Assembly (NCBI RefSeq): GCF_003790525.1
Contig: NZ_CP033635.1
Reading direction: 5' to 3' (one strand)
From: Escherichia coli
GTDB lineage: Bacteria; Pseudomonadota; Gammaproteobacteria; Enterobacterales; Enterobacteriaceae
DNA length: 64,000 nucleotides
Position numbers and translations under genes: made by a program. The notes beneath the pieces are model-generated. The model saw only the letters and a list, made by a program, of their open reading frames with translations, was not told the DNA's origin and did no database searches. Within the stretch, counting starts at the first letter, position 1, and each line of letters begins with the position of its first letter. Below, piece after piece: positions 55,360 through 60,829 of the stretch.

Positions 55360-56193
55360 ATGTATCAGGCTCAGTTTTCTCATAACCCACTGTATTGCGT
55401 AGATATTATCAAGACTTATAAACCTGATTTCACGCCACGAGTGGCCTTTATTTTAGGTTCCGGGCTGGGCGCGCTGGCCGATCAGATTGAGAACGCGGTC
55501 GCAATTTCCTACGAAAAGCTGCCTGGGTTCCCGGTAAGTACCGTACACGGTCATGCGGGTGAGCTGGTGCTGGGTTATCTCCAGGGGGTGCCAGTGGCGT
55601 GCATGAAAGGTCGCGGACATTTCTACGAAGGTCGTGGGATGACCATCATGACGGATGCAATCCGTACCTTTAAGTTGCTGGGCTGCGAGTTGCTGTTCTG
55701 CACCAATGCGGCTGGCTCACTGCGTCCTGAAGTGGGGGCCGGCAGTCTGGTCGCATTGAAAGATCACATCAACACCATGCCGGGAACGCCGATGGTGGGT
55801 CTTAATGATGAACGTTTTGGTGAGCGCTTCTTCTCGCTGGCAAATACCTACGATGCGGAATACCGCGCACTGTTACAAAAAGTGGCGAAAGAAGAGGGGT
55901 TCCCTCTGACGGAGGGCGTGTTCGTCTCGTATCCGGGTCCGAATTTCGAGACTGCGGCGGAAATTCGCATGATGCAAATTATTGGTGGGGATGTTGTTGG
56001 TATGTCTGTGGTGCCTGAGGTTATTTCTGCTCGCCATTGCGAACTTAAAGTCGTTGCGGTCTCTGCGATTACCAACATGGCGGAAGGTCTGAGTGACGTG
56101 AAGCTTTCTCATGCCCAAACGCTGGCAGCAGCGGAACTCTCAAAGCAAAACTTTATTAATCTTATTTGCGGCTTTCTGCGCAAAATTGCCTGA
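55360..56193 (+). CDS. xapA: Xanthosine phosphorylase (PNP-II)
   Basis: 277-aa ORF, purine nucleoside phosphorylase family. Confidence 0.9.
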   Translation: MYQAQFSHNPLYCVDIIKTYKPDFTPRVAFILGSGLGALADQIENAVAISYEKLPGFPVSTVHGHAGELVLGYLQGVPVACMKGRGHFYEGRGMTIMTDAIRTFKLLGCELLFCTNAAGSLRPEVGAGSLVALKDHINTMPGTPMVGLNDERFGERFFSLANTYDAEYRALLQKVAKEEGFPLTEGVFVSYPGPNFETAAEIRMMQIIGGDVVGMSVVPEVISARHCELKVVAVSAITNMAEGLSDVKLSHAQTLAAAELSKQNFINLICGFLRKIA

Positions 56194-56253: not shown

Positions 56254-57510
56254 ATGAGCATCGCTTTGCGCTTAAAGGTAATGTCCTTTTTGCAATATTT
56301 TATCTGGGGGAGCTGGCTGGTTACCCTCGGTTCTTACATGATTAATACCCTTCATTTCACCGGCGCTAATGTTGGCATGGTTTACAGTTCCAAAGGGATC
56401 GCCGCGATTATTATGCCTGGTATAATGGGGATCATCGCAGACAAATGGCTGCGTGCAGAACGTGCATACATGCTGTGTCACCTGGTGTGTGCAGGCGTAC
56501 TTTTTTATGCGGCATCCGTAACTGATCCGGATATGATGTTTTGGGTGATGTTAGTCAATGCGATGGCGTTTATGCCGACTATTGCGTTATCGAACAGCGT
56601 CTCTTATTCCTGTCTTGCCCAGGCAGGGCTTGACCCGGTGACCGCTTTCCCGCCCATTCGCGTTTTTGGTACTGTGGGGTTCATTGTCGCCATGTGGGCA
56701 GTAAGCCTGCTGCATCTGGAATTGAGTAGTCTGCAACTGTATATCGCGTCCGGTGCGTCATTGCTGCTGTCGGCTTATGCGCTGACTTTGCCGAAGATTC
56801 CGGTTGCGGAGAAAAAAGCGACTACATCGCTTGCCAGCAAGCTGGGCCTGGATGCCTTCGTGCTGTTTAAAAATCCACGCATGGCTATCTTTTTCCTCTT
56901 CGCCATGATGCTGGGTGCGGTGCTGCAAATTACCAACGTTTTTGGCAACCCGTTCCTGCATGATTTCGCCCGTAATCCTGAGTTTGCTGATAGCTTCGTG
57001 GTGAAATACCCGTCCATTTTACTGTCAGTTTCACAGATGGCTGAAGTCGGTTTCATTCTGACGATACCGTTCTTTTTGAAGCGTTTCGGTATTAAAACCG
57101 TCATGCTGATGAGTATGGTGGCGTGGACGCTGCGCTTTGGCTTCTTTGCCTATGGCGACCCATCACCAACCGGGTTTATTTTGCTGTTGCTGTCGATGAT
57201 TGTTTACGGTTGTGCATTCGATTTCTTCAATATTTCTGGTTCGGTCTTTGTCGAACAGGAAGTTGATTCCAGCATTCGTGCCAGCGCCCAGGGCCTTTTT
57301 ATGACGATGGTAAATGGCGTCGGCGCATGGGTTGGCTCGATTCTGAGCGGTATGGCAGTGGATTACTTCTCGGTGGATGGCGTAAAAGATTGGCATACCA
57401 TTTGGCTGATGTTTGCAGGGTATGCTCTTTTCCTCGCAGTGATATTTTTCTTTGGGTTTAAATATAACCATGACCCTGAAAAGATAACGCATCGTTCAGT
57501 TACACATTAA
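56254..57510 (+). CDS. xapB: Xanthosine permease (MFS nucleoside:H+ symporter)
   Basis: 418-aa polytopic ORF following xapA. Confidence 0.9.
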   Translation: MSIALRLKVMSFLQYFIWGSWLVTLGSYMINTLHFTGANVGMVYSSKGIAAIIMPGIMGIIADKWLRAERAYMLCHLVCAGVLFYAASVTDPDMMFWVMLVNAMAFMPTIALSNSVSYSCLAQAGLDPVTAFPPIRVFGTVGFIVAMWAVSLLHLELSSLQLYIASGASLLLSAYALTLPKIPVAEKKATTSLASKLGLDAFVLFKNPRMAIFFLFAMMLGAVLQITNVFGNPFLHDFARNPEFADSFVVKYPSILLSVSQMAEVGFILTIPFFLKRFGIKTVMLMSMVAWTLRFGFFAYGDPSPTGFILLLLSMIVYGCAFDFFNISGSVFVEQEVDSSIRASAQGLFMTMVNGVGAWVGSILSGMAVDYFSVDGVKDWHTIWLMFAGYALFLAVIFFFGFKYNHDPEKITHRSVTH

Positions 57511-57562
57511 AAGGATTCGCAGCTCTGTTCCTTGGGGCTGCTTTTATGATAAAGGTTAATTA

Positions 57563-57721
57563 GTGAAAGATATTTTATTTTCTTCTGGCGTTGGTTTTGG
57601 CATTGGTGCTTTGTTTACAATCGTGCGATTACCTATTCCTGTTCCAAATGTATTGCCGGGTATATTATCCATCGTGTTTATGTATGTCGGATATCTGGTG
57701 GTGAAATACTTTATGCCATGA
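57563..57721 (+). CDS. Candidate small hydrophobic protein (52 aa), unverified
   Basis: GTG-initiated ORF with AAGG 7 nt upstream; encodes (M)KDILFSSGVGFGIGALFTIVRLPIPVPNVLPGILSIVFMYVGYLVVKYFMP; below the ORF-track length cutoff. Confidence 0.3.
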   Translation: MKDILFSSGVGFGIGALFTIVRLPIPVPNVLPGILSIVFMYVGYLVVKYFMP

Positions 57722-57762
57722 TAATTTAATACGATATATTTTTTTATATGGAGCACTTAATT

Positions 57763-58647
57763 ATGGAACGCGTATATAGAACAGATCTTAAGTTGCTCCG
57801 TTATTTTCTTGCCGTAGCGGAAGAGTTGCATTTTGGTCGCGCAGCAGCGCGTTTAAATATGTCTCAGCCTCCGCTCAGTATTCATATTAAAGAGCTGGAA
57901 AATCAACTCGGCACGCAGCTTTTTATTCGCCATTCGCGCAGCGTCGTACTGACACACGCGGGCAAAATCTTGATGGAAGAATCGCGTCGATTGCTGGTGA
58001 ATGCAAATAATGTATTGGCTCGGGTTGAACAAATAGGTCGGGGAGAAGCAGGGCGGATTGAACTCGGGGTTGTGGGAACGGCAATGTGGGGACGGATGCG
58101 CCCGGTTATGCGGCGATTCCTTAGAGAAAATCCTAACGTTGAAGTTCTGTTTCGCGAAAAGATGCCCGCGATGCAAATGGCCTTGCTGGAACGCCGCGAA
58201 CTTGATGCCGGGATCTGGCGAATGGCGACAGAACCACCGACTGGTTTTACCAGCTTACGGTTGCATGAATCGGCGTTTCTGGTGGCGATGCCTGAAGAGC
58301 ATCATCTCTCATCATTTTCCACCGTCCCGCTGGAAGCGCTACGTGACGAGTATTTCGTTACAATGCCGCCCGTGTACACTGACTGGGATTTTTTGCAGCG
58401 AGTTTGCCAGCAGGTGGGATTTTCACCGGTTGTTATTCGCGAAGTTAATGAACCGCAAACGGTACTCGCCATGGTCAGTATGGGTATTGGTATCACATTG
58501 ATAGCGGACAGCTACGCGCAGATGAACTGGCCCGGTGTCATATTCCGTCCGCTCAAAGAACGCATCCCGGCAGACTTATATATTGTTTATGAAACGCAGC
58601 AGGTGACGCCCGCGCTGGTTAAACTGCTGGCGGCGTTGGCGCAGTAG
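57763..58647 (+). CDS. xapR: LysR-family activator of xapAB
   Basis: ORF trimmed to ATG 57763 (MERVYRTDLKLLRYFLAVAEELHFGRAAARLNMSQPPLS). Confidence 0.9.
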   Translation: MERVYRTDLKLLRYFLAVAEELHFGRAAARLNMSQPPLSIHIKELENQLGTQLFIRHSRSVVLTHAGKILMEESRRLLVNANNVLARVEQIGRGEAGRIELGVVGTAMWGRMRPVMRRFLRENPNVEVLFREKMPAMQMALLERRELDAGIWRMATEPPTGFTSLRLHESAFLVAMPEEHHLSSFSTVPLEALRDEYFVTMPPVYTDWDFLQRVCQQVGFSPVVIREVNEPQTVLAMVSMGIGITLIADSYAQMNWPGVIFRPLKERIPADLYIVYETQQVTPALVKLLAALAQ

Positions 58648-58673
58648 ATGAGAGGCACGGGAACTGCCGGACA

Positions 58674-58706
58674 TAGTTGGTCTGATAAGCGAAGCGCATC
58701 AGGCAA
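58674..58706. repeat. REP element
   Basis: ggtctgataagcgaagcgcatcaggc matches REP pattern. Confidence 0.55.
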
Positions 58707-58725
58707 TTTCGCAAATTGCAGATAG

Positions 58726-58753
58726 CAAAAAAGCGCCTTTAGGGCGCTTTTTT
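58726..58753. terminator. Bidirectional rho-independent terminator (tRNA operon / xapR)
   Basis: aaaaaagcgcc tttag ggcgcttttt: 6-bp GC stem flanked by A-run and T-run. Confidence 0.7.
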
Positions 58754-58757
58754 ACAT

Positions 58758-58833
58758 TGGTGGGTCGTGCAGGATTCGAACCTGCGACCAATTGATTAAA
58801 AGTCAACTGCTCTACCAACTGAGCTAACGACCC
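58758..58833 (-). tRNA. lysV: tRNA-Lys (anticodon UUU)
   Basis: Reverse complement is a 76-nt cloverleaf ending CCA with anticodon loop CUUUUAA. Confidence 0.95.
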
Positions 58834-58837
58834 GAAG

Positions 58838-58913
58838 TGGTGGGTGATGACGGGATCGAACCGCCGACCCCCTCCTTGTAAGGGAGGTGCTCTCCCAGCT
58901 GAGCTAATCACCC
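58838..58913 (-). tRNA. valY: tRNA-Val (anticodon UAC)
   Basis: 76-nt tRNA, reverse complement GGGTGATTAGCTCAGCTGGGAGAGCACCTCCCTTACAAGGAGG...CACCCACCA. Confidence 0.95.
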
Positions 58914-58959
58914 ACTTCGGTACTTCACATTTTTACAAGAAATTTAGCTGGCGAGAAAG

Positions 58960-59035
58960 TGGTGGGTGATGACGGGATCGAACCGCCGACCCCCTCCTTG
59001 TAAGGGAGGTGCTCTCCCAGCTGAGCTAATCACCC
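58960..59035 (-). tRNA. valX: tRNA-Val (anticodon UAC)
   Basis: Identical copy of the tRNA-Val sequence. Confidence 0.95.
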
Positions 59036-59079
59036 ACTTCTCAATTTCTTGCTACACGGCGGAGACTACATAAAGTAGT

Positions 59080-59155
59080 TGGTGGGTGATGACGGGATCG
59101 AACCGCCGACCCCCTCCTTGTAAGGGAGGTGCTCTCCCAGCTGAGCTAATCACCC
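59080..59155 (-). tRNA. valU: tRNA-Val (anticodon UAC)
   Basis: Identical copy of the tRNA-Val sequence; first gene of the operon. Confidence 0.95.
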
Positions 59156-59172
59156 CCGCTGTGTGGAGTCGC

Positions 59173-59200
59173 ATTATAGGGAGAGTTCAAAATGAGTCAA
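59173..59200 (-). promoter_or_regulatory. Sigma70 promoter of the valU-valX-valY-lysV tRNA operon
   Basis: On minus strand: TTGACT (59195-59200), 16-nt spacer, TATAAT (59173-59178), GC-rich discriminator, AT-rich UP-like sequence upstream. Confidence 0.7.
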
Positions 59201-59413
59201 CGCATTTTCTAAAGAAATTGTTCGTTCGTCGTAAATTTAAGCAAGATGATCGCAAAACAGGCCGTGCTGCGCAATTTCTCAACGAAAACAATAATGCATC
59301 ATGTAGCAACCCGAACTACATTGAGGAATCAGGCGGGAGTGATAGAATATCGCCCACTCAATTTTTCCAGGATTTGCCGGTTGTCGGCATCTTTCTAAAC
59401 GTAAGGCCATTTC

Positions 59414-60829
59414 ATGAAAATCAAAACTCGCTTCGCGCCAAGCCCAACAGGCTATCTGCACGTTGGCGGCGCGCGTACTGCTCTTTACTCTTGGCTTTTT
59501 GCACGTAACCACGGCGGTGAGTTCGTGCTGCGTATTGAAGACACCGATCTTGAGCGTTCCACGCCGGAAGCTATCGAAGCCATTATGGATGGCATGAACT
59601 GGCTGAGCCTGGAGTGGGATGAAGGTCCGTACTACCAGACCAAACGTTTTGATCGCTACAATGCGGTGATCGATCAGATGCTGGAAGAGGGCACTGCTTA
59701 TAAATGCTATTGCTCTAAAGAGCGCCTGGAAGCGCTGCGCGAAGAGCAAATGGCGAAAGGTGAGAAGCCGCGTTATGACGGTCGCTGCCGCCACAGCCAT
59801 GAGCATCACGCTGATGATGAACCGTGTGTCGTGCGTTTTGCTAACCCGCAGGAAGGTTCTGTTGTTTTTGACGATCAGATCCGTGGTCCGATCGAATTCA
59901 GCAACCAGGAGCTGGATGATCTGATTATCCGTCGTACCGATGGTTCTCCAACCTATAACTTCTGTGTAGTGGTTGACGACTGGGATATGGAAATCACGCA
60001 CGTCATCCGTGGTGAAGACCATATCAACAACACGCCGCGCCAGATCAACATCCTGAAAGCGCTGAACGCGCCCGTACCGGTTTACGCGCACGTTTCTATG
60101 ATCAACGGTGATGACGGTAAAAAACTGTCCAAACGTCACGGGGCGGTCAGCGTAATGCAGTATCGTGATGACGGTTATTTGCCAGAAGCACTGCTGAACT
60201 ATCTGGTGCGTCTGGGCTGGTCCCACGGCGATCAGGAAATCTTCACTCGTGAAGAGATGATCAAATACTTCACTCTGAATGCCGTCAGCAAATCTGCCAG
60301 TGCGTTCAACACCGACAAGCTGCTGTGGCTAAACCATCACTACATTAACGCACTGCCGCCGGAGTATGTGGCTACCCACTTACAGTGGCACATCGAGCAG
60401 GAAAATATCGATACCCGTAACGGCCCGCAACTGGCTGATCTGGTAAAACTGCTGGGTGAACGCTGCAAAACGCTGAAAGAGATGGCACAGACTTGCCGTT
60501 ATTTCTACGAAGATTTTGCTGAGTTCGATGCCGACGCCGCGAAAAAACATCTGCGTCCGGTAGCGCGTCAGCCGCTGGAAGTGGTTCGTGACAAACTGGC
60601 CGCGATTACTGACTGGACCGCTGAAAACGTTCATCACGCTATTCAGGCGACGGCGGATGAGCTGGAAGTGGGTATGGGTAAAGTTGGTATGCCGCTGCGT
60701 GTCGCCGTTACCGGTGCGGGGCAGTCTCCGGCACTGGACGTTACCGTTCACGCGATCGGTAAGACCCGCAGTATCGAGCGTATCAACAAAGCGCTGGCTT
60801 TTATTGCGGAACGCGAAAACCAGCAGTAA
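59414..60829 (+). CDS. gltX: Glutamyl-tRNA synthetase
   Basis: 471-aa ORF ([31 protein letters not shown]) with HIGH-type and KMSKS (KLSKR) motifs. Confidence 0.95.

Follow-up and report, generated by a model that had tools for sequence, protein, structure and literature searches.

The window analysed here, a stretch of 64,000 nucleotides from Escherichia coli (assembly GCF_003790525.1, contig NZ_CP033635.1), carries a xap module in the order yfeN, xapA, xapB, xapX, xapR, followed by tRNA-Lys and three tRNA-Val genes on the opposite strand and then by gltX (Table 1). The short frame xapX, which lies between xapB and xapR, had been flagged in a first-pass annotation of the sequence as an unlisted ORF for a hydrophobic two-helix peptide. 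Our ORF listing returned the same coordinates and translation, and the AAGG said to precede its GTG by 7 nt is seen in the sequence. The 52-nt gap after the xapB stop and the shared orientation with xapB and xapR, to which xapA can be added, were also as described; the distance to xapR, given as 42 bp, is actually 41 nt to the annotated ATG. That the ORF was unlisted is true of the gene track supplied with the window, because of its 60-aa cut-off, and of the curated K-12 record NC_000913.3, where nothing is annotated from xapR to xapB, but not of PGAP-annotated RefSeq genomes, which list xapX. The 501 bases around xapX are 100% identical to those of E. coli FDAARGOS_497.

Table 1. Genes and sequence elements of the xap locus, in window coordinates
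Feature	Coordinates	Strand	Remarks
xapA, xanthosine phosphorylase	55360..56193	+	First gene of the xap module
xapB, xanthosine/H+ symporter (MFS, NHS family)	56254..57510	+	Directly 5' of xapX
Terminator-like hairpin	57519..57547	+	GCAGCTCTG-TTCCT-TGGGGCTGC, then TTTTAT; -13 kcal/mol; between the xapB stop and xapX; putative function
SD-like AAGG	57552..57555	+	7 nt 5' of the xapX GTG
xapX CDS	57563..57721	+	52 codons plus stop, GTG start; product MKDILFSSGVGFGIGALFTIVRLPIPVPNVLPGILSIVFMYVGYLVVKYFMP
Weak sigma-70-like match	57713..57740	+	ATGCCA-16-TATATT; consensus match only; overlaps the last xapX codons; possible xapR promoter
xapR, LysR-type activator of xapAB	57763..58647	+	Directly 3' of xapX

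The hairpin between xapB and xapX folds at -13 to -23 kcal/mol in five of seven sequences compared, and a U-run follows it in E. coli, Salmonella, Enterobacter and Citrobacter. From its sequence it looks like a partial terminator after xapAB, and because hairpin and U-run stand ahead of xapX, the gene may be transcribed together with xapR or only by read-through from xapAB. Both stem arms in K-12 (locus L002, 3120-3148) differ from those of the window strain, yet a 9-bp stem still folds. A similar GC-rich inverted repeat with a T-run, read by eye rather than folded, follows xapB in Klebsiella huaxiensis (L137, 3912-3940), which has no xapX. Genomic SELEX in vitro placed an RpoN (sigma-54) holoenzyme peak in the xapB-xapR spacer (near window position 57700; old coordinate 2,520,564) and assigned it to xapR (PMC8743547). 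Inspection of the spacer by eye found no GG-N10-GC match with consensus flanks, so that a canonical sigma-54 promoter was rejected there. Downstream of xapR, K-12 has an annotated RtT-like sRNA repeat of 126 nt ahead of tRNA-Lys (L002, 4248-4511), which is absent from the window strain (58648-58757); the xapR-to-tRNA-Lys gap is about 110 nt in the window strain versus about 264 nt in K-12.

Conservation of the xapX reading frame

The length of the ORF is by itself no evidence for a gene, because 836 of 5000 dinucleotide-preserving shuffles (17%) of the 252-nt spacer, which has 35% GC, hold an ORF of at least 52 codons. The first-pass annotation had allowed that an AT-rich promoter region might simply happen to be open; with length uninformative, this was a reasonable worry, and comparison with other genomes therefore had to decide. 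The homologous interval was gathered from K-12, Salmonella, Enterobacter, Citrobacter, Entomohabitans and Chimaeribacter, with Kluyvera added later. Every one of these intervals has a GTG or ATG at the same position and a 52-codon frame, so that the frame, start position and length of xapX stay constant over eight enterobacterial genera, in contrast to the variable spacers on either side. A purine-rich SD-like run (AAGG, AGGAGG or GGGGG) stands at the same distance before the start in the other genera. The xapX alignment contains zero indels, against a xapX-xapR spacer of variable length (about 39 to about 119 nt) and a xapB-xapX spacer that differs in sequence.

Substitutions within the frame follow the codon pattern of a protein gene. 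Across seven sequences from six genera, the variable columns at codon positions 1, 2 and 3 number 19, 12 and 45, and pairwise dN/dS is 0.04-0.3 where dS could be estimated, several pairs being saturated at synonymous sites. The window strain and K-12 represent the two main allele classes, with about 94% DNA identity and the same protein (WP_000651752.1); all seven sites at which their ORFs differ are third-position and synonymous, an outcome with p ~6e-5 if substitutions were random. As judged from these patterns, purifying selection acts on the xapX frame, and the conservation and synonymous-versus-nonsynonymous comparison that the first-pass annotation had proposed as a check came out in favour of a gene, with the frame kept, dN/dS low and no frame-breaking stops or indels. 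Two overlapping frames were considered and rejected: an antisense 66-aa ORF (57556-57756, minus strand) and a 37-aa ORF in another frame (57591-57704, plus strand) are both interrupted by stops in other genera. Rfam covariance models run over 57300-59500 found only the four downstream tRNAs, with none in 57563-57721 at E<=1.

We conclude that xapX almost certainly acts as a real, translated gene. The opposite view, that an AT-rich terminator and promoter spacer is open here by chance, can point to the shuffles, to a GC content of 38% for xapX versus 48% for xapB, to the curated K-12 annotation that omits it and to one ribosome-profiling supplement without footprints there. This view is effectively refuted by the conservation data, that is, by substitutions that are synonymous only, an alignment without indels and a start kept across eight genera, while the overlapping antisense and other-frame ORFs are not conserved; it is further opposed by an HMM match far above cut-off and by a family of hundreds of members across phyla (see below). 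We regard it as extremely improbable and have discarded the chance-ORF reading. NC_000913.3 omits a gene of a textbook E. coli regulon, the GTG of which corresponds to position 2522676 on the minus strand of that record, and listing xapX would fix the gap.

A subtler alternative accepts translation and gives the peptide no importance, the ORF acting mainly in cis as an upstream ORF that sets xapR expression by translational coupling or transcript stabilisation. The short distance from the xapX stop to xapR, the hint of a xapX-xapR unit given by the terminator-like hairpin on the 5' side and the reported constitutive expression of xapR (PMC7205307) would all suit such a role. It is nevertheless very improbable, given the strong purifying selection on the amino-acid sequence, homologues with the same motifs in places where xapR is absent, a spacer to xapR that reaches 111-119 nt in two genera, and the presence of xapR without xapX in Klebsiella and Atlantibacter. 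On a dN/dS of about 0.05-0.2 and the homologues without a downstream xapR, we likewise rejected a place for xapX among leader peptides and regulatory upstream ORFs.

The gene travels with its neighbours. The order xapA-xapB-xapX-xapR was found in eight genera, among them Escherichia, Salmonella, Enterobacter, Citrobacter, Entomohabitans, Kluyvera (xapX at L139, 3792-3950) and Chimaeribacter; in the last of these the cassette occupies a different chromosomal neighbourhood with xapX still inside it. Among complete E. coli genomes, xapX is present in 4084 of 5426 and xapB in 4088 of 5426. The xap cassette is known to transfer horizontally (Price et al. 2008, PMC2395238), and these comparisons show that xapX is inherited as part of a mobile cassette xapA-xapB-xapX-xapR. 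Two enteric loci at the same chromosomal site retain xapA-xapB-xapR with no xapX: Klebsiella huaxiensis, with a 100-nt xapB-xapR gap (L137, 3901-4000), and Atlantibacter subterraneus, with a 50-nt gap (L138, 3951-4000). It follows that xapX is not an obligate partner of XapB and is dispensable there, and, with Kluyvera retaining it, that some enteric lineages have either shed it or never acquired it.

Within E. coli, about one quarter of complete genomes are without the entire cassette. In strain RM14721, an IS1 occupies the place of xapA-xapB-xapX beside a truncated yfeN (L136, 3248-3945), and in strain TUM9975 an IS903B is inserted in xapB.

Database membership and predicted fold

The xapX gene is already catalogued and named in public databases, and its novelty as a gene is therefore low. 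Its product matches the NCBIfam model TIGR03510 'XapX' with 64.2 bits (E 5.8e-18, cut-off 27.8), residues 4-50 aligning to positions 2-48 of the 49 in the model; it is a full-length member of this family, which takes its name from the position between xapB and xapR, and shares its signature G-x3-G ... [K/R]-LPxPxP ... G ... G. All 29 full-length E. coli records that were sampled, a K-12 MG1655 assembly among them, have the product (WP_000651752.1) under the PGAP name 'DUF1427 family protein', and the exact sequence occurs on at least 1000 public contigs. A Pfam-A scan of E. coli XapX gave no match even at E<=10, PF07235 (DUF1427) included, and Pfam DUF1427 matches 16 of 30 XapX homologues at E<=0.001. 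Because the E. coli sequence lacks a direct Pfam match, its link to DUF1427 runs through these relatives and the PGAP product name.

Searches of the literature for XapX, DUF1427, TIGR03510 and PF07235 returned a domain census from 2005 (PMC554113) and one gene table, with no published function. The supplement of the ribosome-profiling preprint of Stringer et al. has no entry for the xapX locus, a preprint on the Enterobacteriaceae microproteome does not mention xap, and the literature searched contained no experimental work on xapX by tagging or ribosome profiling.

The first-pass annotation had described two hydrophobic stretches separated by a Pro-rich turn, and structure prediction gives the same picture. 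AlphaFold2, run with a 65-sequence alignment, folds XapX into a helical hairpin (mean pLDDT 86.8), in which residues 2-20 and 31-50 form the helices and residues 21-30 link them without helical structure; the topology was unchanged when a shallower alignment was used, at a pLDDT of 69. The protein is strongly hydrophobic (GRAVY 1.31). Its first helix is Gly-rich (GxGxGxG), its second has small residues spaced as in a glycine zipper, and the connector carries a rigid, near-invariant [K/R]-L-P-x-P-x-P, which in E. coli lies within the loop R22-L-P-I-P-V-P-N-V30. Across the 65 family sequences P26, P28 and G43 are invariant, and conservation is at least 90% at G11, G15, F18, L23, P24, A27, G33 and I37. 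The loop has a mean charge of +0.93/-0.03 over 120 family members among the matches listed, the N-terminal tail is slightly acidic and the C-terminal tail mildly basic, a pattern from which the positive-inside rule yields no definite membrane orientation. XapX is thus predicted from the model to be a helical-hairpin inner-membrane protein, and the proposal of a small two-helix inner-membrane protein at the xanthosine locus now has behind it selection on the frame, a conserved start and SD, membership of the XapX family and the hairpin model.

A sequence profile search of the PDB returned noise only (E>0.6), and Foldseek found no match for the XapX model in the PDB or AFDB50, a weakly informative result since the tool serves short hairpins poorly. 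None of five family members matched a PHROG at E<=0.01, and we rejected assignment to the phage holins or other small phage membrane proteins; one relative lies on a phage-like contig. One likeness is to the F-type ATPase c subunit, a glycine-zipper helical hairpin that oligomerises. XapX is also a hairpin, with a first helix of the GxGxGxG type and a short conserved connecting loop, but the searches gave no sequence or fold match, and XapX lacks a conserved membrane-embedded carboxylate.

Family neighbourhoods and possible function

The family is far broader than the xap cassette. When 1.84 billion representative proteins were searched with a profile, 77 clusters were obtained at E<=0.001, every one composed of small proteins. 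Searching one genome per GTDB species with a degenerate DNA pattern for LPIPAPxxLxG[IV]xxI recovered at least 120 loci, a sample biased by the motif; 120 of the 121 pattern matches listed score as members of the XapX family, and all nine relatives tested match TIGR03510 at 58-76 bits. The matches listed come from Bacillota, Gamma-, Alpha- and Betaproteobacteria, Actinomycetota, Bacteroidota, Cyanobacteria, CPR bacteria and Micrarchaeota MAGs. Enteric XapX forms a separate branch with at most 46% identity to the rest of the family.

Clustering the neighbouring ORFs and naming the clusters with NCBIfam revealed several recurrent arrangements around the xapX homologue (X below). The largest is that of Bacillota, where X follows YwiB and ArgS and is succeeded by an alpha/beta hydrolase, UvsE, cardiolipin synthase or PyrG in at least some 55 loci; these argS-linked loci are one vertically inherited block, which accounts for about half of the family members among the matches listed and has no obvious link to nucleosides. 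Other arrangements belong to nucleoside catabolism. The order TatD-NupC-X-DeoC-DeoA occurs in at least 22 loci of Vibrio, Aliivibrio, Photobacterium, Salinivibrio, Aeromonas and Endozoicomonas, in Colwelliaceae (Colwellia and Thalassotalea) X lies between add (adenosine deaminase) and deoD, and in Neobacillus drentensis and a Bacillus species it stands in the order DeoR-DeoC-X-Cdd with gaps of 22 and 16 nt. With xap itself, the matches listed include four nucleoside-catabolism contexts in two phyla, which use the unrelated transporters XapB (MFS-NHS) or NupC (CNT) or have no adjacent transporter. The Neobacillus protein is 74-76% identical to the Aeromonas copies, and so a 'deo-type' subfamily keeps its nucleoside linkage across phyla. 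This recurrence of XapX-family genes in clusters for nucleoside uptake and catabolism, with unrelated transporters and in two phyla, is what is new here.

Outside these clusters, the 52-aa family member on two metagenome contigs (L010, 1654-1812; L011, 682-840) has a 4-nt overlap with the stop of an FMN-reductase gene, as is typical of translationally coupled pairs. Another non-nucleoside neighbour of family members is a CsoR-like repressor. Family members were also seen on a phage-like contig with RecA and MazG-like genes (L014, 3065-3220), in CPR bacteria (L033, L128) and in Micrarchaeota MAGs (L080, L096).

XapX could have a function with no bearing on nucleosides, such as general membrane or stress housekeeping, and merely hitch-hike in the xap cassette; the many unrelated contexts (argS in Bacillota, the FMN reductase, the CsoR-like repressor, the phage-like contig, and the CPR and archaeal MAGs) would then need no special explanation, nor would the loss of xapX from the otherwise intact xap loci of Klebsiella and Atlantibacter. 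Against this stand the four separate nucleoside-catabolism contexts in two phyla, for which, at about 1% per context, the chance of four in about 20 being nucleoside-related is ~5e-5 (a rough estimate from a biased sample, not a formal test), together with the span of the deo-type linkage from Bacillota to Gammaproteobacteria and the relocated xap cassette of Chimaeribacter, which took xapX along. We consider a function unrelated to nucleosides unlikely, and lean towards one that is tied to nucleoside utilisation, with some reserve over the half of the listed family that follows argS and over the FMN-reductase, CsoR-like and phage contexts. The breadth of the family, which extends to bacteria and archaea with ultra-small genomes and to a probable phage contig, is hard to reconcile with a role in a single pathway.

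Our best explanation, to which we give roughly even chances as a whole, is that XapX is a genuine hairpin membrane protein of the xap cassette and serves nucleoside utilisation as an accessory that is not essential. Placed in the inner membrane as a helical hairpin, it might act at a membrane step, most plausibly transport; it could, for instance, modulate or stabilise a nucleoside permease or the coupling of the permease to catabolism, in the manner of other very small membrane proteins that tune larger transporters. Familiar examples of the latter are AcrZ with AcrB, KdpF with KdpABC, MgtS and MgtR with MgtA, and CydX with CydAB, which are mostly single-helix proteins, each specific for one partner. 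XapX resembles them in being very small, hydrophobic, encoded in or beside a transporter operon and non-essential, and a modulatory role would fit; it differs in being a two-helix hairpin of a large, widespread family found beside two unrelated transporter families or beside none, and the association seen with XapB is one of gene adjacency.

Action through the permease or a transport step is the more tentative part of this explanation, and we hold it to be rather doubtful. It is suggested by adjacency to a transporter, XapB in the xap cassette and NupC in at least 22 other loci. However, the terminator-like hairpin separates xapX from xapB, the xap loci of Klebsiella huaxiensis and Atlantibacter indicate that the permease needs no XapX, and a single partner for two unrelated transporter folds is not parsimonious, the more so as no transporter adjoins X in two of the nucleoside contexts.

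The same contexts invite a permease-independent reading, in which XapX is autonomous and its glycine-zipper hairpins assemble into a homo-oligomeric minimal channel or facilitator that lets a product of nucleoside breakdown, such as a free nucleobase or another small solute, through the membrane. The X protein is the sole membrane protein of the Add-X-DeoD and DeoR-DeoC-X-Cdd clusters, it adjoins two unrelated transporter families elsewhere, glycine is near-invariant at positions 11, 15, 33 and 43, and each nucleoside context includes an enzyme that releases or modifies a base (XapA, DeoA, DeoD, Add or Cdd). But the homo-oligomer is only a proposal, neither the PDB profile search nor Foldseek gave a sequence or fold match to known channels, 52 residues in helices almost without polar side chains make a poor pore lining, and the argS-linked majority would go unexplained. 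We judge such a channel improbable, more so than the unrelated function considered above.

The most far-reaching reading is that XapX hairpins constitute an unrecognised, widespread class of micro-membrane proteins dedicated to nucleoside or nucleobase traffic, either as a universal add-on that tunes nucleoside permeases of the unrelated MFS-NHS and CNT folds or as a minimal oligomeric conduit for bases from nucleoside phosphorylases and deaminases. This is speculative and on balance unlikely. If it holds, the classic xap system of E. coli K-12 would have a working fourth gene that is missing from the list. Work on small membrane proteins that tune transporters is active, and a widespread family of two-helix members would enrich it; if a xapX deletion has no phenotype, the gene would be an ordinary annotated hypothetical. 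The recurrent nucleoside neighbourhoods provide a concrete hypothesis for a DUF, one that is cheap to test because the genetic tools for studying xanthosine and nucleoside transport are already available in E. coli.

Divergent members of the family

Oceanobacillus salinisoli has two tandem XapX-family ORFs about 120 nt apart (L027, 782-826 and 948-992), and such tandem ORFs may be the origin of longer, two-domain DUF1427 proteins. A longer subfamily of about 70-90 aa, with an N-terminal Y-V-Y-V-G-R-N-E extension and a C-terminal F-G-R-P-P tail, occurs in Alpha- and Betaproteobacteria (L017, L059, L081, L090 and L121) and in an Actinomycetota MAG (L099-L100). At three of these loci (L081, L090 and L121), a gene nearby weakly resembles formamidase/acetamidase, with a score of 61 bits that lies under the cut-off.
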